A stretch of 64,000 bases of DNA from an uncultured Acidobacteriota bacterium (GCA_963795735.1 CAWCIU010000002.1:166217-230216), one strand, 5' to 3'; positions 25,233-50,738 are shown, numbered from the stretch's first letter. Made by a program: numbers and translations. The notes: a model not told the origin generated them from the sequence alone.

Positions 25233-25802
25233 TCAAGCCGAGCGAAGTCCTCTGAACGGGAGCCTGCCTTGTAGGTTCATTAGGAGAGAATTTGTGGAGA
25301 AGGGCGGCCCGACAAATTCATGGGTCGACCACTCTTCCGAATCTTGAAGTGGTACGAACCCAAGAATATTGTTATCTTGAAATAGAGCAAAGATCTCCGA
25401 ATTGTAGCGAGGAATGAGCAGGAGGCGGATGGTACCGTTGCCTAGGATTCCTTCCAGACGGTTCAGCGTGGCGTCGAAGCGTTGTGCGATTTCAGAGCGC
25501 ACGAGCTTGATCAAGCGGCACTTTTGATGCTCGACTATCGAGCGGGCATAGAGAAGCGGTTGGCCGTTGACCTTAATTTGATGGTGCCAGAGCACCTTCT
25601 CGTCTCGGATGAAGCCCGATATGGGATCCTCCACCGAGAATTCTTCCGGAAGGTCGAGCGTAACCACGCGACAGCTCTCGTGCCAAGTGTAGGCCGCGTC
25701 CGGATTCAATTCTGGAGTGTCTTCGAGGAGGCTTCGCAAGGGAGCGGCTAGCCCCGCAACAAACTGTGCTTTTAAAGGGTCAGGGAAGACATCGAATTGC
25801 AT
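25233..25802 (-). CDS. Hypothetical protein (189 aa), last gene of the island operon
   Basis: Start moved to ATG 25800-25802 (MQFDVFPDPL...). A perfect AAGGAG Shine-Dalgarno lies 4 nt upstream, whereas the longer ORF start at 25847 has none. GC is about 50%, against about 67% for the flanks. Confidence 0.55.
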   Translation of the reverse strand: MQFDVFPDPLKAQFVAGLAAPLRSLLEDTPELNPDAAYTWHESCRVVTLDLPEEFSVEDPISGFIRDEKVLWHHQIKVNGQPLLYARSIVEHQKCRLIKLVRSEIAQRFDATLNRLEGILGNGTIRLLLIPRYNSEIFALFQDNNILGFVPLQDSEEWSTHEFVGPPFSTNSLLMNLQGRLPFRGLRSA

Positions 25803-25810
25803 GGGGCTCC

Positions 25811-26374
25811 TTAAGAATTGTGGATGTGAGTCCACGTACCGACCCATGGGCCGTAAGAGAGGTCTTTGACTAGACCCTGGTACGTTATTTCTGCTGGGCC
25901 GCTCTTGGGATTGGGATCGCGCACCTTGAGAACCATATCGACTTCTGTGGTTCCCTGGCAGCCGACGACGAGGACGACATGACCACCGCCCGTGAAATCC
26001 GGGCAGCTCTCCATGTTTCCGAGCCAGACCTCGATTGGGCCAGCGCCGAGCTCGGTACGAATCTGGTCGGGCGTCAAGGTTCCGCAGCGAGGCTCCACAT
26101 TGGGAAAGCCGAAATGTTCCCAGAGGCCCTTGATCCTGGCCGGAGGCACGGCCTCATTGCAGGAAGGCTCGTTCGTGCAACACTGGCGTGCCGGAAAGGC
26201 CACCTGAGCCACAGCGCACTGCGCCGGAGCCAAGTTTTTCAGGACCATGCAGAAACAGGTGACCCAGCACCAGAGATCCCTGATCTGCCGGATCCTCGGG
26301 ATATCCAGCCTCACGGGCTGATCGAGCACCGCTGCCGGGTGGACCAGCGTGCCTGCGGCAACGCGCAGGCTCAT
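25811..26374 (-). CDS. C39-like (papain-fold) cysteine peptidase
   Basis: Q-x5-C motif QIRDLWCWVTCFCMVL followed by GGGHVVLVVG...VRDP, the Gln/Cys...His...Asp arrangement of C39-like peptidases. GGAGGG Shine-Dalgarno. The ATG overlaps the upstream stop (ATGA). Confidence 0.5.
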   Translation of the reverse strand: MSLRVAAGTLVHPAAVLDQPVRLDIPRIRQIRDLWCWVTCFCMVLKNLAPAQCAVAQVAFPARQCCTNEPSCNEAVPPARIKGLWEHFGFPNVEPRCGTLTPDQIRTELGAGPIEVWLGNMESCPDFTGGGHVVLVVGCQGTTEVDMVLKVRDPNPKSGPAEITYQGLVKDLSYGPWVGTWTHIHNS

Positions 26375-27381
26375 GGTTTCCCTCCGCCGCCGGCCGCAGT
26401 AAAGGCCGCTAGGGCGCCTTTTAAGTTCGACGCGAAACCCTTGAAGCCGCCTCCGCCGCAGGTGGTCCGTAAGCAGCCGAGACCGCCTTCCTTGGCCATG
26501 AACGGCAAGGGGCAGGGCTCCTGCTCCATTCCGGAGAGCATGTAGAGCGCCTTAAAATCAATATCCACAGTGCCTACGGGGATCTTCCCTTCCGCGAACC
26601 GGAGAACTTCGTCCATCTCTCGGTTCTTGATCTCGATGGTGACCGTTTCCTCTCCCACAGCGTCGTCCTTGAAACGCAGGACACGAGGATCTTGACCGTC
26701 TTTGAATAAGTGAATCGCCAGGGGCACCGTGAGCGGATCGATCCGGAGCGCAATAGCGTGGGCCACGGCCTGCTTTGCCTTAAGCGGATCGTTTGGGGAG
26801 ACGTGGAACCCCCAGATGCTCGGCCGCTCAGTCGGTGTAGCAGCAAGATCTGGAATTAGGGAATAAGTCATCAGGTCCCCTTGGTCAATAATCACATGCG
26901 CTGCTATATCCCCTTGCGTCGGTAACGGACCCTTGAAGAAACTTTCGTTGTTGTTTCCGAACACTCCTGAGCCAGGCAGGAGGTCCTCCATCGCAGGAAG
27001 CCATTTTAAGGAGGTCTTTTGTTGCTCGGTGGCTAGGCTGGGATCTTCGAGCGTCGCCTGATCAATCTCGATAAAGACAGGATTGAAGGGTTTCGGCGCT
27101 CCGGTCTCAATCCGGATCTGGTGACCGGATAGTTGAATCAATCCGAACTCCCGCCCACCGTCCTTGCGGAAGCGGAGCGTAATGAGATCCTCATCCACCT
27201 CGAAGAGATCGGTCGGAAACTGCAGCACGGAATAATGAGGCGTGAGCGTCACGTCATTGACGGTAAGCCCCTCGGAAGCTTCCGGAAGAAGAGCCGACCA
27301 GGAGGGCGCGGGCGCCGGGTCGTCGGCGAGCCGGTTAGGGACATAGGCACAGACACCGGAGAAAACGATCTGGAAATTCAA
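26371..27381 (-). CDS. Hypothetical protein (336 aa) with a Gly-rich C-terminus (...TTCGGGGFKGFASNLKGALAAFTAAGGGGKP); candidate protease substrate or effector
   Basis: Likely start is TTG 27379-27381 (MNFQIVFSGVCAYVP...), with AAGGGAGG 7 nt upstream. The ORF-track start at 27402 would translate the Shine-Dalgarno itself. The TTG overlaps the CHAT gene stop (TTGA). No recognisable family. Confidence 0.5.
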   Translation of the reverse strand: MNFQIVFSGVCAYVPNRLADDPAPAPSWSALLPEASEGLTVNDVTLTPHYSVLQFPTDLFEVDEDLITLRFRKDGGREFGLIQLSGHQIRIETGAPKPFNPVFIEIDQATLEDPSLATEQQKTSLKWLPAMEDLLPGSGVFGNNNESFFKGPLPTQGDIAAHVIIDQGDLMTYSLIPDLAATPTERPSIWGFHVSPNDPLKAKQAVAHAIALRIDPLTVPLAIHLFKDGQDPRVLRFKDDAVGEETVTIEIKNREMDEVLRFAEGKIPVGTVDIDFKALYMLSGMEQEPCPLPFMAKEGGLGCLRTTCGGGGFKGFASNLKGALAAFTAAGGGGKP

Positions 27382-29013
27382 TGAGGTTCCTCCCTTAGGC
27401 AAAAGTTCGTGGTCAGTCCGCCGATCAGTTGAAAGGCGGGCCAGCCGCTTTTGTGGACCGAGCCGCGCCCCTCCTCGTGGAGCAGACGGAGCTGAGCGGC
27501 GCGGAGAGCCGCCACGGGAGGCAATCCCTCTCGCAACGACTTATAGAAAGTGTCGAAAAGCTTCTGGGCTTCACCGTCCTGGACGCGCCAGAGGCTGCCC
27601 AGAACGGCTGGGACTCCGGCCGTCAAGAAAGGCCGAGCTAGGGTCAGGGCTCCAGGCCAGGCAGCGTCCGGTGCTGCCGCCGTGCTACAGGCAGAGAGGG
27701 CAACCAGTCTCGTGCGCGGGAAAGAATGCGCCTGAAGATCACTGCCAGTGACCTCTCCCGAACCTCCTCCGGGAGGTTGTGCAAAGAGGAGGACGGAATC
27801 GAGAGGCCGGTCGGGCGAGGCCACGGCGTGCCCTGCGAAATGGATCCAGGTGGCTTCAGGCAGTTGCTGAAAGAATGTCCGAGAGACCGCCGCAGAGCCG
27901 GTCATCAGGACTGTCGAGCCCGGGAAGAGGTCGCTGATGCGCTCGCCCTCCCGGCGCGAACTTTCGAGGGCACCGAGTTGCAGCATAGAGGAGGGCGAAG
28001 TCGGGTCGGTGACAACCAGGATCCGGGGCTTGCCGTGCTCCCGTGCGAGTTGCTGTTCTCGTTTGGTAGCGTAGGCGAAGAAGGTAGCACTCGGGGCCAC
28101 CATGAGAGCGGTGTCCTCAATTAAGAAGCGGCAGGTCGCGGCACTCCGCAGGGATGAAAATGAGATCCGGAAGAGAGACTTATCGGGGACTACAACGACG
28201 GTCCTATGCCGGCCCGGCTCGAACCAAGGCGAGACTAGGATTTGGTATAGCCTTGCTGAGGCCTGTTCCCAGGGATGGCCCTGCCAGTTATCCCCTACGA
28301 AGTGTGCAACCAAGCGCTCAATCTCTCCGCGCTTGAGGGGCACTTCGTGAAAGTCCATAGAGGTGGCGGTCCTCGTCCAGATGAGCAAGCGATCCGTTAG
28401 GAGGGAGTACTCAACAAGGACGCCCTGTGGGGGCAACGCCGCTGAGAGATCCTCTGGTGTCACGGGTCGGATGGGCTGTGGATTGGAGTACCGCGGGATG
28501 GGCCAGTTCACAATCTTCGACCTCTCGACGAAGTAGACGGCCTTCTCCGGATTTTTCTCTTCAACTGCCTCCAGACGCACCATCTGATCGAAGGCACTTT
28601 CGACCAAACCCGCGAGAGAGAGCCGGTACGCATCCTCGGTCAGGCCTTTGCCGAGCCGCTCGTGGATTTGGAGGCTGAGGAGGAGATTGGCCTTCTCTCT
28701 CGTCGTCTGGCCAAGCTTCCGATAGGCTTGGGCGCGGGCCTCATAGGCCAGCAGTCGGTTAGGCCAATGGCCTGTCTTCTGGTAACGGGCCACCGCGCGG
28801 TCGAGAAATTGGACAGCCGCAGCGGGATCTTTCTCTAGAATGATGGCTCCCGATATTAAGCCGGCGTCCGCATAGGACTGCTCGGTCCGCGAGGGATCGG
28901 CGATCTTCGCCGTTTGTAGGGCTGCGGCCTGGAGATCCCGCGCGGCATCGGCGAGTTGGCCGAAGCGAGCATGGAGGAGAGCCCTCCACAAAAGCACGTC
29001 GGCGCGGACGCTA
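27378..29013 (-). pseudogene. CHAT-domain (caspase-like) protease, the C-terminal two-thirds of a TPR-CHAT gene split by IS630
   Basis: CHAT His/Cys dyad: ...ATWIHFAGHAVAS...RTRLVALSACSTAA... The first 5 codons of the ORF-track call (MTHYT) are IS terminal-repeat sequence. The reading frame continues into the TPR fragment once the IS is removed. Confidence 0.8.
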
Positions 29014-30181
29014 GTGTAGTGGGTCAAACAGATGTGTCCTTAACCAGAGCCTGCCGAGCGCGTGTGACCTTTTCAAGGATGTCGCTTGCGGTCTTCGTCC
29101 AGATAAAGGGTTTGGGATCTTCGTTGTGACGAGCCAGATACTCATGGATCGCCGTAACCAGATCTGCGACGCTGCGAAAGATGCCCCGACGCAACCGGTT
29201 TTCTGTCAGGTCACGGAAGAACCTTTCGACCATGTTGAGCCATGAGGCGCTGGTTGGGGTGAAATGAATCCTGAACCGCGGATGGCGAGCCAGCCAAGCT
29301 TGAACCTTCGGATGCTTGTGAGTCGCATAGTTGTCCGCGATCAGATGAATCTCCGGGCTCTTCGGGGTCTCTCGGTCAATGAGGCTCAGGAACTTAATCC
29401 ACTCCTGATGGCGATGCCGCGGCATGCAGGTCCCGATCACCTTCCCGTTCAGCGTATTGAGCGCAGTGAACAGTGTCGTCGTTCCGTGGCGCTTGTAGTC
29501 GTGGGTCATCGTGCCATGGCGGCCCGGCACAAGGGGAAGGCCTGGCTGGGTGCGGTCGAGCGCCTGAATTTGGCTTTTTTCATCGACAGAGAAAACCAGC
29601 GCATGCTCTGGAGGGTTCAGGTAAAGACCGACGACATCCTCCAACTTCTCCACGAACCTCGCATCCCGACTCAATTTGAAGGTTCGAGTCAGGTGAGGCT
29701 TCAGGCCATGACGTCTCCAGACACGACCGATCGTGCTCGGGCTCAGCCCCATCATCTTGGCCAGACTACGGGTGCTCCAGTGCGTTCCCGCCACTGGCGT
29801 CTCTTGCGTCGTCTTGCGCACGATCTCCCGAATTACATCCTCGCCAATCGAAGGCAGCCTCCCGGCCCGAGGGGCATCCTTCAAGATGCCGACGGTCCGC
29901 TTCTCGGCAAAACGACGGCGCCAAACACCAACTGTCCGTCGCGCTGCACCAGAAATCTCAGCAATCTCTCGGTTCTGCTTGCCTTCAGCAGCCAGCAGGA
30001 CGATTCTCGCCCTCTCTGCCACGCGCACGGATACCCTACGGCCACGTGCAAGCTTCTCAAGCTCAGCCCTCTCCTCAGGCGAAAGGACTATCGAGACAGC
30101 TACCTTCATGTTCCCTCCTGGAGGTATTCCCTACCAGGAAAGGATAACAGAAGTTGCCGAACATCGGACCCACTACACTAG
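29011..30181 (-). mobile_element. IS630-family insertion sequence, copy 1 (1171 bp including flanking TA)
   Basis: Terminal inverted repeats TAGTGTAGTGGGTC / GACCCACTACACTA, flanked by TA. 100% identical over its length to copy 2 at 49568-50738. Confidence 0.9.
29024..30109 (-). CDS. IS630-family DDE transposase (361 aa)
   Basis: N-terminal HTH followed by a DDE domain (…[12 protein letters not shown]…[12 protein letters not shown]…WLNMVERFF…). Confidence 0.9.
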
Positions 30182-31832
30182 GGTTGTCCAGCGAGCTCGA
30201 GGCCTGAACCGCGGCATCCTGATAGAGGTAGGAGAGCTCAGCATCCCCCGAGCGCAGAGTGAAGTCTGCCAGAGTATTGTAAATTTGTGTCTCTCGATAG
30301 GCAAGCCCTAGCCTACGATTCTGGACGAGGGCCTGATAGAGGTACTTCCAGGCCCTTTGGCGATCTCCGAGTTCGTTGTAGCTCTCTCCCAGCAGCGAGT
30401 TGACGAAGGCGATATGCTCGGCATCAGAGAAGTGCTCGAAGATTGTCAGAGCCTCGTGGAGGCACCGACGTGCCTGCTCGGGGTTCCCGGACACGTTCTC
30501 AATCGAGCCCTGGCGATGAAGGATCTTTGCACGCAGATAGAGGTAAGAGTGACCGGTGATCTTCCGGCTCAGATCTCGCAACCGATCTCTGGCCTGCTCA
30601 TACTTCCCCTGGGCATAGAGGCTGGCAGCTTCGTAGTCGACCGCGAGGTCCTGGAACGCCTCGGCGTTCCCACGAAATCCTCCCAAAGCCGTGCCGAGCC
30701 CGACGAGCGCGCTTCCAGGGCGTGACCGCTCATGGTCCTCGATAGCCCCTCGGAATGCCACGATCCCCTTGATTAACCGTGCGGTTTGCTGGGTCGAGCC
30801 GGTTTGGACCGTAGACTCGATCTCGGAGATTCCGTCCGCGAGTAGGGTGTCCCCCCATTCTTCTTTATATAGATCGGCGACGATTCGAGCTGCGTGGAGG
30901 TGACGATTTGCGGCGACCCAGTCACCGGTTCTCCATGCCTCCCCCCAAGCGGGAAGCAGAGAGGTAGTAACCCAACGCAAGGCACTGGACGGTACGGCTT
31001 TGGCGAAGATAGCAGCCCGGGCATCGATCAGCTGCCCCTCCGAGAGGTCGCGATCTAGATTACGAGTATTCCAGGTCTCGACCAAGGTAGGGGTCTCCAG
31101 GCGCCGTAGGCGTTCTTGGGCTTCTCGTCTCCAGGGAGAGGCTGGTGCTTCCTTGTGTAGGTAGTACTCCCAAGCCTCGCGGGCGGCTCGGGGAAGTTGT
31201 AAAGACTCCAAGATCCAGGCGCGGTTGAACAGAACCTCCGGGCGGTCGGGAGCTAGTTTGAAGGCACGCTCGACAGCATGGAATGCGTCCTGGATGAGGC
31301 GGGGATTCTGGGTTAGAGACGCCTTCCAGCCGTCAAGGGCGGCCAAATCGCTCCAGAGAAGAGCATTTGCCGGATCGGCTTCGGTCGCAGAACCGAGTTG
31401 ATCGATAGCTGCATCGAGTCCTGCGCCTTTCGGGTCCTCCACTAAATACCAGAGGGCGAGTCTGCGATGCTTTCCAGCCGTACCTGAATGTTCGACACCG
31501 CGTCTCAGTTCTGTTCCCTCGGAGAGCAAGGCTTGCGACGGTCGTGCCTCGTCCTGCAAAGCTGGACAGTGCCAGCGCTCAAGGAGCCCTGAGGTTTCCT
31601 CACGACATGGGCTAGCGGACTGCCGTGTAGACAACCGGGGATAGATCTGCCGATAGCTATCGAAGAGCCGCTCGAATTTTGCCGGGGGGTGGCAATGAAG
31701 CAGGAGACCATAGATTAGAGGGACGAGGAAAAAGAGCCTCGCGCGCAGAACAGAGTTCTTGTCTGGCTGGCTTCTTGCGCCTTTCGTGGCCTTCGGAAGG
31801 CCCAGACCAAGGCGATCCTGCGCGTCCAACAT
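30182..31832 (-). pseudogene. N-terminal TPR-repeat part of the TPR-CHAT gene, truncated by IS630
   Basis: ATG 31830-31832. An N-terminal TM segment is followed by TPR-like repeats. The last ~35 codons of the ORF-track call lie inside the IS. Confidence 0.75.
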
Positions 31833-32296
31833 GTGCCGAATTGTGGACCCCCATTTTAAGATTACAGTTAGATTCTAACAGCGTCCTGTCAAGTAAGTCT
31901 ATCGGGAACGGTTAAATTCCGAGCTAGATCATCTCGAATTCCTCAAAGCTGTCCGTCTAAGATCAAGACGGGGTGTCCAAGTCTCTTTCCCGCCTTGGAG
32001 GCCTTCTTTCCTTGCCGATCGATCTCAAGCCCTGTTCTGGGCGGCGAGGGCTCCCTCCCGGCAGGGGAGAGGCTTGGACCCGTCGAATCCGGGATGGGCA
32101 TCTGCGTGCAACTGCGATCTACACGTCTCTCATCCAGTAGGAGGAACGCAGAGTGGTAGCGCCTCGCAGCCTTGAACGCTTCTCAGGAGACTCCAAGCTC
32201 TTCTCCCGGAGAGGCTTGCGCCCTACGGTGCCCACAACTCCTATAGAATTCCAGCCATCACCAGATCCCAAGGTGAGATCCCGTGTACGACGCCCC

Positions 32297-33097
32297 ATGG
32301 CCACCCTCCCCAAATCCCCCGGCGACCTGACTCCTGAGCAGCTCTTCCTTGGGCACCTGAAGCTCGTCGAGGAAATCGTGGCCTATGGGTGCCGGCGGTC
32401 CCGCTTCAGCTCTCAAGAGGCGGAGGACTTCCGGGGGGAGGTCATGGTGAAGCTCATCGAGGGGGATTACGCCGTATTGCGCCTGTTCGAGGAACGGAGC
32501 GAGATGCGGACCTATCTCGCGACCGTCATCAACCACCTGCTCCTCGACTACCAGAACCACATCTGGACCAAATGGCGCCGGTCGGCGGAAGCGGGACGGC
32601 TCGGTCCGATCGCGGAGCGGCTGGAGCGGCTGATCGTCCGGGACGGGTTCTCCTTCAGCGAGGCCTGTCACAAGCTCTGGGCAGAGGGGGTGGAGATGTC
32701 CGAGGCGGAGCTCGCGGAGATCAAGGGCAAGCTCCCCCCCAGGTTCATCCGCCGCTTCGTCGCGGAGGACACGATCCAGGCCATGGCTGACCGGGAGCTC
32801 CCGCCCGACAAGCAGTTGGAGCAGAAGGAGCGGAGCGCCCTGGCAGTGCGGGTCCTCAGGATCGTTCACCGGGAGATCCAGGCGCTCCCGGCGGAGGAGA
32901 AGATCCTCGTCCAGATGCGGCTGGAGCTCAAGGTGGCCGACATCGCCCGGATCCGGAAGCTGGACCAAAAAGCCCTCTACCGGCGATTGAAGAAGATTTA
33001 CGAGAAGCTGGAGAAGGCGCTCGCAAAGCAGGGAATCCGGCGCAAGGACATCAAGGAGCTTCTGGGCGACCTCCAGCCCGGCCTCCTCGATTTCTAG
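32297..33097 (+). CDS. ECF-type RNA polymerase sigma factor
   Basis: Start trimmed to MATLPKSPG (ATG 32297). Region 2 (...RTYLATVINHLLLDYQNHIW...) and region 4 HTH (ALPAEEKILVQMRLELKVADIARI...). Confidence 0.7.
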   Translation: MATLPKSPGDLTPEQLFLGHLKLVEEIVAYGCRRSRFSSQEAEDFRGEVMVKLIEGDYAVLRLFEERSEMRTYLATVINHLLLDYQNHIWTKWRRSAEAGRLGPIAERLERLIVRDGFSFSEACHKLWAEGVEMSEAELAEIKGKLPPRFIRRFVAEDTIQAMADRELPPDKQLEQKERSALAVRVLRIVHREIQALPAEEKILVQMRLELKVADIARIRKLDQKALYRRLKKIYEKLEKALAKQGIRRKDIKELLGDLQPGLLDF

Positions 33098-33174: not shown

Positions 33175-34182
33175 ATGCAGGAATCTACACCTATAAAGAG
33201 GACGCGCTCCTCCGAGCACTGCCCGACCGACAAGCAGCTGGCCGCCTATATCGACGGCGCCCTCGGCAAGGCCGAGAGCCAGTACGTCACCGAGCATCTC
33301 GCCTCCTGCCGGGATTGCTACGACCTCTATATGGAGACGGCGCACTTCCTGGTGGACTCCAGCGCTGCGACGCCGGAGGACGCGAAGCATGAATGGGGCG
33401 AGGTCGCCAATCGGCAGGTGGCGAGGTTCCCTGTCCCCATCGAGAGGGCCCGCCCCCTCGCGCAGTGGCTCTCCATCGCCGCGCTCCTCCTCGTCGGAGC
33501 CGGCGGCGGGACCTATTTCCAGCTCCTGCAGGCTCCCCCGGCGCTCATGCCTCCCGCACTGATCGGCCCCATTCCCAATCCGGCGGCGCAGATCCCGAAC
33601 TTCTGGAAGGGGCCGACGTACCGGGGAGAGGGAGGCGGGGACGAGGCGAAGCTGAACGACGCCTCGTTCCGGATGGGGGTCCAGTCCGTCAATCTCCAGG
33701 TGAGTCTGAAGGCGGGCAACGGCCCGGAGGCCGAGGACGGGGTCGCCCGCATTCTCGGAATCCTCAAGGGCCAGCCCTTCACCGACGAGCTTCAGAAGGG
33801 CTACACCGGGATCACCCTCGCCGTGGAGAACCGGAAGGCTCCGGCCGACCTCCTCCCCGAGGCCTCCCGTCTGGCCGGGTTGTCGCGGGACGCGTTCGAC
33901 ACGACCTATCTCGACCTCGGCCAGTGGGTGGAAGCGGGGCGGCTGGCGGCGCTCTCCCATGATCCCTCCTTCTTCCAGCAGTCCGACGCCCGGAGCTTCC
34001 TCCGGCGCTCGATCTGGCGCTCGAAGGTGGGACTCGGCAAGACGAAGCTCGATCCTCCCACCCTTCAGCACCTGGAACGGATCGCCGGCATCGTCTCCAA
34101 GGGCGACCTCCAGGCCTCCGATTACGCCAGGCTGAAACAGCCGTTCGACGAAATTCTCAAGATTCACTACCCCGACACGTAA
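33175..34182 (+). CDS. Zinc-finger (zf-HC2) anti-sigma factor, single-pass membrane protein
   Basis: H-x3-C-x2-C motif EHLASCRDCYDLY, TM segment WLSIAALLLVGAGG, and a periplasmic domain. Immediately downstream of the ECF sigma gene. Confidence 0.7.
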   Translation: MQESTPIKRTRSSEHCPTDKQLAAYIDGALGKAESQYVTEHLASCRDCYDLYMETAHFLVDSSAATPEDAKHEWGEVANRQVARFPVPIERARPLAQWLSIAALLLVGAGGGTYFQLLQAPPALMPPALIGPIPNPAAQIPNFWKGPTYRGEGGGDEAKLNDASFRMGVQSVNLQVSLKAGNGPEAEDGVARILGILKGQPFTDELQKGYTGITLAVENRKAPADLLPEASRLAGLSRDAFDTTYLDLGQWVEAGRLAALSHDPSFFQQSDARSFLRRSIWRSKVGLGKTKLDPPTLQHLERIAGIVSKGDLQASDYARLKQPFDEILKIHYPDT

Positions 34183-34197
34183 GGACGACAGCTCGCC

Positions 34198-34450
34198 GCC
34201 GTGCCGAAGCTTCGGCGGCTCAGCGAAGCTTCGGCGGCCCAGCGAAGCTTCGGCAGCTCGTCGGGAGCTTCGGCAGCTCAGCGAAGCTTCGGCAGCGTAG
34301 CGAAGCTTCGGCAGCGCAGCGAAGCTTCGGCGGGCCAGCGAAGCTTCGGCAGCCCAGCGCAGCTTCGGCAGGCCAGCGAAGCTTCGGCAGGCCGTCGTAA
34401 GCTTCGGCAGCCCAGCGAAGCTTCGGCAGCGTAGCGAAGCTTCGGCACGG
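34198..34450. repeat. Tandem array of 13 units of a 19-20 bp repeat (consensus CAGCGAAGCTTCGGCAGCN), each with the 10-bp palindrome CGAAGCTTCG
   Basis: Counted directly between the anti-sigma stop (34182) and the end of the convergent acyltransferase gene (34455). Confidence 0.9.
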
Positions 34451-48908: not shown

Positions 48909-49571
48909 ATGAGCAAGAACACCCACCGCATCACCATGGCCGCCCTGGCGGGCCTCCTGGCGCTGACCCCGGCGTTCGCCCAGAGCACGGGGACCGCCAC
49001 CGGCTCCATGTCCGGCTCGGCCGCCAAGAGCACCAAGAAGAAGACCACCACCACCACGAGCACCTCCTCCTCGATGCTCAGCGCCGCCGACACCAAGTTC
49101 GTCAAGGCCGCGGCCTCGGGCGGCATGGAAGAGGTCGAGCTCGGCAAACTGGCGGCGCAGAAGGCCTCCAATCCCGACGTCAAGAGCTTCGGCCAGAAGA
49201 TGGTCGACGACCACACCAAGGCCAACGACCAGCTCAAGCAGGTCGCTTCCCAGAAGAACGTGACCCTGCCGGCGGGCATGAACAACATGCAGAAGCACGA
49301 CCAGGCCAAGCTCGCCAAGCTCTCCGGCGCCGCCTTCGACCGGAGCTACGTCAGCATGATGGTCAAGGACCACAAGAAGGACGTCGCCGACTTCCAGAAG
49401 GAATCGACGAGCGGCAAGGACACGGACGTCAAGAGCTTCGCCTCGACGACCCTGCCCACCCTGCAGGACCACCTGAAAATGGTGCAGGACCTCTCCTCGA
49501 GCCTCAACAAGAAGAAGACCGCGAGCACGACCACCAAGACCACCACCAAGAAGAGCAGCTCGGGCCGCTAG
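48909..49571 (+). CDS. DUF4142-family secreted protein, paralog 1
   Basis: Signal peptide plus a Ser/Thr-rich linker. Core ...DTKFVKAAASGGMEEVELGKLAAQKASNPDVKSFGQKMVDDHTKANDQLK... The TAG stop incorporates the IS630 target TA. Confidence 0.8.
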   Translation: MSKNTHRITMAALAGLLALTPAFAQSTGTATGSMSGSAAKSTKKKTTTTTSTSSSMLSAADTKFVKAAASGGMEEVELGKLAAQKASNPDVKSFGQKMVDDHTKANDQLKQVASQKNVTLPAGMNNMQKHDQAKLAKLSGAAFDRSYVSMMVKDHKKDVADFQKESTSGKDTDVKSFASTTLPTLQDHLKMVQDLSSSLNKKKTASTTTKTTTKKSSSGR

Positions 49572-50738
49572 TGTAGTGGGTCAAACAGATGTGTCCTTAA
49601 CCAGAGCCTGCCGAGCGCGTGTGACCTTTTCAAGGATGTCGCTTGCGGTCTTCGTCCAGATAAAGGGTTTGGGATCTTCGTTGTGACGAGCCAGATACTC
49701 ATGGATCGCCGTAACCAGATCTGCGACGCTGCGAAAGATGCCCCGACGCAACCGGTTTTCTGTCAGGTCACGGAAGAACCTTTCGACCATGTTGAGCCAT
49801 GAGGCGCTGGTTGGGGTGAAATGAATCCTGAACCGCGGATGGCGAGCCAGCCAAGCTTGAACCTTCGGATGCTTGTGAGTCGCATAGTTGTCCGCGATCA
49901 GATGAATCTCCGGGCTCTTCGGGGTCTCTCGGTCAATGAGGCTCAGGAACTTAATCCACTCCTGATGGCGATGCCGCGGCATGCAGGTCCCGATCACCTT
50001 CCCGTTCAGCGTATTGAGCGCAGTGAACAGTGTCGTCGTTCCGTGGCGCTTGTAGTCGTGGGTCATCGTGCCATGGCGGCCCGGCACAAGGGGAAGGCCT
50101 GGCTGGGTGCGGTCGAGCGCCTGAATTTGGCTTTTTTCATCGACAGAGAAAACCAGCGCATGCTCTGGAGGGTTCAGGTAAAGACCGACGACATCCTCCA
50201 ACTTCTCCACGAACCTCGCATCCCGACTCAATTTGAAGGTTCGAGTCAGGTGAGGCTTCAGGCCATGACGTCTCCAGACACGACCGATCGTGCTCGGGCT
50301 CAGCCCCATCATCTTGGCCAGACTACGGGTGCTCCAGTGCGTTCCCGCCACTGGCGTCTCTTGCGTCGTCTTGCGCACGATCTCCCGAATTACATCCTCG
50401 CCAATCGAAGGCAGCCTCCCGGCCCGAGGGGCATCCTTCAAGATGCCGACGGTCCGCTTCTCGGCAAAACGACGGCGCCAAACACCAACTGTCCGTCGCG
50501 CTGCACCAGAAATCTCAGCAATCTCTCGGTTCTGCTTGCCTTCAGCAGCCAGCAGGACGATTCTCGCCCTCTCTGCCACGCGCACGGATACCCTACGGCC
50601 ACGTGCAAGCTTCTCAAGCTCAGCCCTCTCCTCAGGCGAAAGGACTATCGAGACAGCTACCTTCATGTTCCCTCCTGGAGGTATTCCCTACCAGGAAAGG
50701 ATAACAGAAGTTGCCGAACATCGGACCCACTACACTAG
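49568..50738 (-). mobile_element. IS630-family insertion sequence, copy 2; identical to copy 1 and in the same orientation
   Basis: Offset of exactly 20557 bp from copy 1 across the element. The transposase ORFs are identical. Confidence 0.9.
49581..50666 (-). CDS. IS630-family DDE transposase (361 aa), copy 2
   Basis: Identical protein to 29024-30109. Confidence 0.9.

Follow-up and report, generated by a model that had tools for sequence, protein, structure and literature searches.

A conserved CHAT protease operon with a family-less partner protein on a foreign island of an uncultured Acidobacteriota bacterium

Proteases that combine a CHAT domain with tetratricopeptide repeats (TPRs) are, to our knowledge, very widespread in bacteria, and the few whose substrates are known to us all belong to cytoplasmic defence systems; for exported CHAT proteases, such as DdvA, we know of neither the signal nor the substrate. 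Here we describe a 64,000-nucleotide stretch of DNA from an uncultured Acidobacteriota bacterium (GCA_963795735.1 CAWCIU010000002.1:166217-230216; this whole stretch is referred to below as the window), in which an island at positions 25233-31832 carries a conserved and undescribed operon, or cassette, that may act as a proteolytic switch. Its four genes encode a TPR-CHAT protein, a 336-residue orphan (protein A), a papain-fold peptidase (protein B) and a second, 189-residue orphan (protein D). In the cassette, what is predicted to be an exported, DdvA-like CHAT protease is obligatorily linked to a partner (A), to which a second protease is tied in turn, and the question of what exported CHAT proteases cleave becomes directly testable with four small genes. 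The features of the island are as follows (ORF, open reading frame).

31833..31960, minus strand: AT-rich, promoter-like leader (from sequence; sigma-70-like match at 31901-31872; step in GC content, overall and at third codon positions)
30075-31832, minus strand: TPR-rich ORF (ORF call, TPR matches in Pfam)
30179..31832, minus strand: 5' part of the TPR-CHAT gene, codons 1 to ~551, with the signal, a Cys pair, the DdvA-like scaffold and TPRs (ORF and TPR matches in Pfam)
29014..30178, minus strand: insertion sequence of the IS630 family, 1165 bp (NF033545, E = 4.4e-85; terminal inverted repeats; TA duplication)
29024-30109, minus strand: IS630 transposase ORF (NF033545, E = 4.4e-85)
27378-29027, minus strand: ORF with TPRs and CHAT domain (PF12770, E = 1e-47)
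27378..29011, minus strand: 3' part of the TPR-CHAT gene, with the remaining TPRs and the CHAT domain (PF12770)
26371..27381, minus strand: protein A, 336 aa, TTG start (orphan family)
25811..26374, minus strand: protein B, 187 aa, ATG start (papain-fold peptidase)
25233..25802, minus strand: protein D, 189 aa, with its own AAGGAG Shine-Dalgarno site (orphan family)

The profile of the cassette CHAT proteins has one strong solved relative in the PDB (8ROT/8RW5, E = 8.3e-23), matched over residues 180-299 (scaffold) and 834-981 (CHAT). This is the anti-sigma factor DdvA of Myxococcus xanthus, whose scaffold-TPR-CHAT domain is periplasmic and which controls a defence island containing CBASS (cyclic oligonucleotide-based antiphage signalling system) and CRISPR (PMC11506125). 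The likeness therefore covers both the scaffold and the CHAT regions, and both proteins would be extracytoplasmic. The two loci also share a theme in gene order, in which the CHAT gene is followed by a gene for an unknown protein and then by one for a cysteine peptidase. However, the cassette CHAT protein has neither the zinc-binding anti-sigma domain of DdvA nor its transmembrane link to the cytoplasm, and carries a lipoprotein- or Sec-type signal instead. Moreover, no sigma factor of the extracytoplasmic function (ECF) class is conserved as a partner of the cassette, the pair found in the window being divergent and of native composition, and the downstream peptidase is of papain fold (clan CA), whereas that at ddvA belongs to C25 (clan CD).

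Type III-E Craspase (Csx29, Csx30, Csx31 and RpoE) resembles the cassette in that a TPR-CHAT protease is encoded together with small partner proteins. One of the Craspase partners is a specific substrate of the CHAT protease and holds another factor, and an ECF sigma factor adjoins the cassette in the window as well. In contrast to Craspase, however, Cas7-11 and a CRISPR array are missing from the cassette, and neither the island genes nor the related loci were seen to include a cas gene. Its CHAT protein scores 13.6 bits against the Csx29 model NF041237, for which the cut-off is 300, and no Csx29 or separase chain occurs among the best 60 of its 126 PDB matches at E ≤ 1. Csx29 is cytoplasmic, whereas the cassette CHAT protein is predicted to be exported, and A, B and D have no relatives among the modelled families. 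A further likeness is offered by systems in which one protease controls another, namely SAVED-CHAT/PCaspase of type III-B CRISPR and type IV Thoeris (a TIR protein with an Arg-specific caspase-like protease): Arg-specific cleavage would fit the basic residue that precedes an invariant Cys of A, and TIR proteins are neighbours of the cassette at two loci. The cassette nevertheless lacks a SAVED domain, a CRISPR array and a conserved short TIR partner; its second protease is of papain fold rather than caspase-like, and TIR neighbours are absent from most loci.

The island stands out by its composition. Its GC content is 0.588, against 0.67-0.69 in the flanks, and the contrast is far sharper at third codon positions (GC3), with values of 0.60-0.72 for the island genes and 0.86-0.97 for host genes. 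The preliminary description of this DNA had reported about 50% GC against 67%; the foreign composition is confirmed, but the value has to be corrected to the one measured here. Its coordinates and the four minus-strand genes were borne out by the ORF calls, and the junctions of the tight operon that it had described were found in the sequence: the stop of the CHAT gene overlaps the start of A (TTGA), that of A overlaps the start of B (ATGA), an 8-nt spacer lies ahead of D, and a strong Shine-Dalgarno site (AGGGAGGAA, GGCGGAGGGAAACC and TAAGGAG) comes before each of the three junctions. The leader is probably the right-hand edge of the foreign segment. Directly downstream of the island, on the same strand, lies rpsL (recognized by Pfam), followed by ORFs of the size of rpsG and fusA, which are assigned by size and position only; with this qualification, the reported location immediately upstream of the str operon holds. 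The island is thus a horizontally acquired, translationally coupled four-gene operon.

In this genome the cassette is non-functional, since the IS630 element splits the CHAT gene. All features typical of the IS630 family are present: a DDE transposase, terminal inverted repeats (12 bp, GTGTAGTGGGTC) and a TA target duplication, which flanks the element at 30179-30180 and 29012-29013. Excision of the insertion sequence together with one TA, performed in silico, yielded a single intact TPR-CHAT ORF of 1095 aa without any other lesion, which indicates that the insertion was recent. The element occurs once more 20 kb away (49571-50735), with 100% identity, equal orientation and TA dinucleotides on either side. 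This second copy sits exactly on the TAG stop codon of another ORF (48909-49571), which stays intact; it speaks only for recent IS630 activity in this genome and gives no sign of the counter-selection with which the insertion into the CHAT gene had been reconciled earlier. The ORF concerned encodes a 220-aa protein with a signal peptide and low-complexity, Thr/Lys-rich ends.

The conservation of the gene set was apparent from related loci. Word-indexed searches returned only four to five relatives each for A, B and D, and an exhaustive profile search placed the A family in 72 clusters at 50% identity among 1.84 billion representatives; the family is rare. Thirteen independent loci were retrieved (L001-L003, L005/13, L006, L007, L008/9, L010, L011, L012, L014, L015/16 and L017). 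The CHAT gene lies directly upstream of A in all 13, down to an identity of approximately 22-25% with the A protein of the window, and across these loci the start of A overlaps or abuts the CHAT stop. B is found downstream of A in 11 of the 12 loci for which downstream sequence is available, and among the closer half of the family it is in turn followed by D. At L017 only CHAT and A are present, with dnaB as the next gene; the invariant core of the cassette is therefore a CHAT protein of ~1,100 aa plus an A protein of 300-350 aa.

Two proteins of unusual architecture were encountered among the relatives. In P0057, A and B are fused, with a stretch of low complexity as the linker (hhalign: A part 99.4%, B part 94.5%), which suggests that B may physically associate with A. 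At L015, the 431-aa protein encoded after A has a B domain (96.6%) that is extended at its C-terminus by a stretch bearing the WHHQ motif of D, the match to D being weak. The description of two cysteine proteases with two family-less proteins thus corresponds to a real and conserved operon: the gene set recurs in 13 loci, and ordinary metabolic homologies were not found for its orphan members. A programmed recoding event that would fuse CHAT to A was considered and rejected, because gene coordinates show that the relation between the two reading frames differs from locus to locus.

The first gene product is a TPR plus CHAT protease, as originally proposed (PF12770 in addition to the TPRs). Its catalytic dyad, in the numbering of the restored protein, consists of His942 (HFAGH) and Cys993 (LSAC), and the dyad motifs are present in the window and in L001, L002, L005, L006, L008, L012, L016 and L017. 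In L003 and L007 the pattern of the Cys motif is unmatched, yet His942 and Cys993 are invariant in the alignment of eight orthologues.

At the N-terminus of the window protein, basic residues accompany a hydrophobic export signal whose last residues are LLLHC. A basic stretch with a hydrophobic segment occurs in all eight full-length CHAT orthologues, and in seven of these the segment ends in Cys: three contain the PROSITE lipobox core (LLGC, ALAC and LAAC), one reads APGC, and in the remaining three position -1 is occupied by H, R or N. The eighth, from L006, has a plain signal or anchor sequence. All eight share a conserved Cys pair after the signal. A zf-HC2 match was not found in the CHAT protein, whose N-terminus is occupied by the signal/lipobox sequence instead. 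From these sequences we infer that the cassette CHAT protein is extracytoplasmic. A, B and D, by comparison, contain no signal peptide or hydrophobic segment, and the N-terminus of A is a conserved core strand. The protease and substrate had implicitly been regarded as a cytoplasmic pair; this view does not agree with a DdvA-like CHAT protein bearing export or lipoprotein signals next to partners without signal peptides. Export of A by hitch-hiking with CHAT through the twin-arginine translocation (Tat) pathway was rejected as well, as the N-termini show no consistent twin-arginine motif.

Protein A, the second member of the invariant core, belongs to no recognized family. None of 50 members of its family has a sequence match in Pfam or NCBIfam, and a sequence-profile search of the PDB gave nothing significant. 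AlphaFold2 (AF2), when supplied with five sequences, modelled A with a predicted local distance difference test score (pLDDT) of 43; a confident model required the alignment of 50 sequences that the exhaustive profile search had yielded (pLDDT 93.3, predicted template modelling score 0.92). This beta-rich model is of low confidence only at residues 301-303 and over the final six residues, and no fold match was found for it in the PDB or BFVD. With a confidently predicted structure that has no solved relative, and a sequence lying outside Pfam, NCBIfam and PADLOC, A is a candidate for a new fold and a new family.

Three residues of A (His49, Gly168 and Cys308) are invariant throughout the family and five are nearly so (Asn253, Glu255, Asp275, Tyr280 and Pro293). 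Motifs shared across the family comprise NxExxE, DxDF, LPxP, a flexible Gly-rich loop and [R/K]x(1-2)C-x4-FxG[FW]. The Gly-rich loop (residues 298-304) adjoins the invariant Cys, which in most members is preceded by a basic residue two to three positions upstream. After the Cys, the model predicts an ordered segment, with pLDDT 98 for residues 311-320. Across the family the length of the C-terminal tail ranges from about 8 to 60 residues, many members ending 8-12 residues past the Cys, and the terminal GGGG of A is shared only with its closest relatives; the Cys alone, and not the GG after it, is conserved. The Gly-rich inhibitory tail and the GG-directed processing postulated earlier for A therefore find no counterpart in the family as a whole.

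Two other proteins that match A deserve mention. In the 448-aa family member P0071 the first strand is followed by an insertion of more than 100 residues in which Gly, Cys and acidic amino acids abound. In P0050, a giant adhesin of 4323 aa with cadherin, He_PIG and Big_9 domains, repeats match residues 177-252 of A six times; part of A may be Ig-like, or this match may be spurious.

Protein B of the window falls below the Pfam cut-offs for both families that it resembles, with 18.5 bits against 19 for C70 (PF12385) and 17.7 against 24 for C39_2 (PF13529). Its orthologues exceed them (23.1-28.7 bits for C70; C39_2 passes in L005 and L006), and Gln30, Cys36 (WCW), His132 (GH) and Asp153 (DP) are invariant in eight orthologues; together these two facts secure the C39-like, papain-fold assignment. 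The identification of B as a C39-like peptidase accordingly stands for the fold, by way of the orthologues, but not for the window copy taken by itself. In the PDB the best match of B was the papain-fold protein Alr0975, at a non-significant E of 0.7. B thus shares the Gln/Cys/His/Asp set of C39_2 and of C70/AvrRpt2, but is a stand-alone protein of about 190 aa with extra conserved Cys residues (10 Cys in all in the window copy), without fusion to an ABC transporter and outside any type III secretion context. At no locus does the cassette contain or adjoin an ABC transporter gene; ABC-3 (L008) and the Mla genes (L017) are unrelated genes of the flanks.

Protein D is characterized by the motifs ES(C), LDLP and WxHQ, the Cys of ESC being replaced in L008. 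Its orthologues in L008 and L012 align with hhalign values of 99.4-99.6%, and it has no match in Pfam, NCBIfam, PADLOC or the PDB. The two proteins of 336 and 189 aa that had been called family-less remain so, being covered by no model of Pfam, NCBIfam or PADLOC. With PADLOC-DB v2.0.0 no match at E ≤ 0.01 was obtained for CHAT, A, B, D, the A-B fusion or the extended B protein of L015. The possibility that D is a paralogue of A or B was ruled out with hhalign.

We favour, with a probability of roughly 40%, the reading that the cassette is a mobile proteolytic switch of conflict or defence type, composed of an envelope CHAT protease, its dedicated partner A and an A-bound B. As to the trigger, the output, who cleaves whom and how an exported CHAT protein would meet signal-less partners, we infer the following course. 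The exported TPR-CHAT protein, a lipoprotein or signal-anchored, would serve as both sensor and trigger protease, with A as its dedicated substrate or pseudo-substrate. The cut would fall in the flexible Gly-rich loop just before the [R/K]xxCys of A. Until then A would keep B, and probably D, in a latent complex; cleavage or loss of A would free B as a proteolytic effector. The bacterial defence caspases characterized so far are Arg-specific (bioRxiv 10.1101/2024.10.24.620036), and there is precedent for defence cascades in which one protease acts on another (bioRxiv 10.1101/2023.06.23.546230). If the cassette is indeed a defence or conflict system, it adds a protease-to-protease module that spans two cell compartments.

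Several observations weigh against the proteolytic switch. Its main weakness is the mismatch of compartments: CHAT is exported, as judged by its signal and its homology to periplasmic DdvA, while A, B and D are signal-less, so that direct cleavage of A by CHAT requires an extra assumption. None of the four cassette proteins is matched by a PADLOC model, and L017 lacks B, which means that B is not essential to the core. No homologue of A was found in the plasmids, phages and IMG/VR contigs searched. At several loci the neighbours are housekeeping genes only (pyrD, dnaB/alr and, in the window, the str operon). In addition, A could itself be an enzyme or a metal-binding protein, in view of its invariant His and Cys and its acidic motifs.

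Among the alternatives the best supported, though in our view unlikely, casts A as a cytoplasmic guardian of an exported protease. In the scpA-scpB, sspB-sspC and speB-spi operons the gene for a cytoplasmic inhibitor directly follows that for a secreted cysteine protease. By analogy, the TPR-CHAT lipoprotein would perform extracytoplasmic proteolysis of the kind proposed for DdvA, for instance in envelope signalling or against incoming proteins of phages or competitors. A, synthesized at a 1:1 ratio by way of the overlapping start, would bind those CHAT molecules that fold prior to export and inhibit or chaperone them, with B and D as accessories of this safeguard in the cytoplasm. Of the schemes considered, this one alone accommodates an exported CHAT protein together with signal-less partners. 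It agrees with the position of A, directly downstream of CHAT and coupled to it in 13 of 13 loci, and with the existence of a minimal CHAT-A module without B or D (L017). The beta-rich structure of A, with a flexible loop ahead of its basic-x-x-Cys, could moreover present a pseudo-substrate. Staphopain/staphostatin and SpeB/Spi offer the same arrangement of an exported cysteine protease gene followed by the gene of a signal-less, beta-rich partner. However, A (336 aa) is about three times larger than the known inhibitors, is not a small eight-stranded beta-barrel like staphostatin, and shows no likeness in fold to them or to anything else in the PDB. The scheme also leaves unexplained why a peptidase of papain fold with intact catalytic residues is fused or linked to A, and why A has an invariant His and acidic motifs.

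A variant that would bring CHAT and A together within the cytoplasm is a guard that monitors export, which we consider improbable. Export would normally separate CHAT from cytoplasmic A; a block of the Sec or lipoprotein pathway or a collapse of the membrane potential, caused by a phage or toxin, would cause the CHAT precursor to build up and fold in the cytoplasm, where it would cleave A at the Gly-rich loop ahead of [R/K]xxCys, and B would then act as an abortive-infection effector. If this were true, A would represent not only a new fold but also a new class of caspase-controlled latch, and the Myxococcus gene that comes after ddvA might be distantly related to it.

More doubtful still is signalling of the DdvA type split over several proteins. 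An ECF sigma factor gene (32153-33097; TIGR02937, E = 4e-12) and a zf-HC2 anti-sigma factor gene (33175-34182) are divergent and adjoin the island. The exported CHAT protein would here be the site-1 protease that clips the neighbouring anti-sigma factor and thereby frees the sigma factor. This would suit the homology of CHAT to the periplasmic domain of an anti-sigma factor, DdvA (PMC11506125), and the structure of the neighbouring one, in which a hydrophobic, probably transmembrane segment is followed by about 200 putatively periplasmic residues. The GC3 values of the two genes, however, are native (0.84 and 0.87), whereas the cassette is foreign; no sigma/anti-sigma neighbour occurs at any other cassette locus examined; neither gene resembles DdvS or the N-terminus of DdvA; and no role is left for A, B and D. 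The pair was rejected as a part of the island on the grounds of its native GC3 and its absence from the other cassette loci, and its adjacency to the cassette is probably coincidental, although in view of the homology to DdvA a local functional link may exist.

The preliminary description had preferred a gasdermin-like, pore-forming effector, from which the CHAT or the C39-like peptidase would remove an inhibitory Gly-rich C-terminal peptide of A. Operons of gasdermins and their proteases do resemble the cassette, in which the gene of a family-less effector candidate adjoins that of a caspase-family protease; both are accessory and sometimes located near defence genes, and in A a flexible loop precedes the C-terminal segment. 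The search with the A model, which found neither a gasdermin nor any pore-former among PDB structures, and the lack of conservation of the tail and the GG largely refute this proposal. Many members end shortly (8-12 residues) after the Cys, the segment that follows it is predicted to be ordered, and the protease is predicted to be exported, unlike the situation in gasdermin operons, so that we now regard this reading as very improbable. Finally, maturation of a bacteriocin or another ribosomally synthesized and post-translationally modified peptide, with B processing a double-glycine leader, is the least credible of the readings considered, since in its favour are only the weak C39_2 similarity of B and a LanM gene directly upstream of the cassette in L002 (1 of 13 loci), whereas the cassette has no conserved association with a precursor peptide, an ABC exporter or a modification enzyme and A is a folded protein of 336 aa with unconserved GG, not a leader-core peptide.

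The proteolytic switch was described above as mobile, and as far as sequence can tell the cassette is a mobile accessory element. In five of the six other loci with measured flanks it has a lower GC3 than the genes on either side, L015 showing no difference, and the neighbours differ at every locus. When one genome per GTDB species was scanned, with a 15-sequence alignment and one short peptide pattern, only two metagenome-assembled genomes of Thermoanaerobaculia matched. The following neighbours were recorded.

L001, 1477-4131: TIR-NB-ARC/NACHT-TPR protein with a ThsB-like TIR domain
L003, 11596-14292: 898-aa TIR protein with a ThsB-like TIR domain
L002, 1-2805: class II lanthipeptide synthetase LanM (DUF4135 and LANC_like), ending 19 bp before CHAT on the same strand
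L008, 4606-5540: AbiEii-type nucleotidyltransferase toxin and an overlapping 91-aa orphan, directly after the cassette
L015: toxin-antitoxin pairs PIN/RHH and ParE/Phd; DUF4926
L015, 10416-13806, minus strand: two orphans of 565 and 552 aa without a match in Pfam or PADLOC, converging on the cassette
L012: pyrD
L017: dnaB/alr

The expected setting in defence islands is therefore seen at some loci, by virtue of the TIR-STAND, AbiEii and toxin-antitoxin genes, but not at several others, where only housekeeping genes are present. A TIR-STAND protein as a conserved fifth component of the cassette was rejected, because the TIR neighbours at the two loci are not orthologues of one another and a TIR protein is missing from most loci.

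Some minor observations concern the surroundings of the island in the window. A long run of short ORFs of high GC3 extends downstream of rpsL on the minus strand (~4700-24723), with the foreign island at its head; their sizes and order resemble those of the str-S10-spc-alpha superoperon, of which rpsL alone was verified with Pfam. On the opposite side, the true start of the sigma factor gene is likely the ATG near position 32298. Between the anti-sigma factor gene and the next minus-strand gene lies a tandem array (34205-34447) in which a 19-bp unit, CGAAGCTTCGGCAGCCCAG, is present in 12.7 copies. The palindrome GAAGCTTC forms part of every unit, and the array may represent an intergenic repeat that forms hairpins or resembles repetitive extragenic palindromic (REP) elements.

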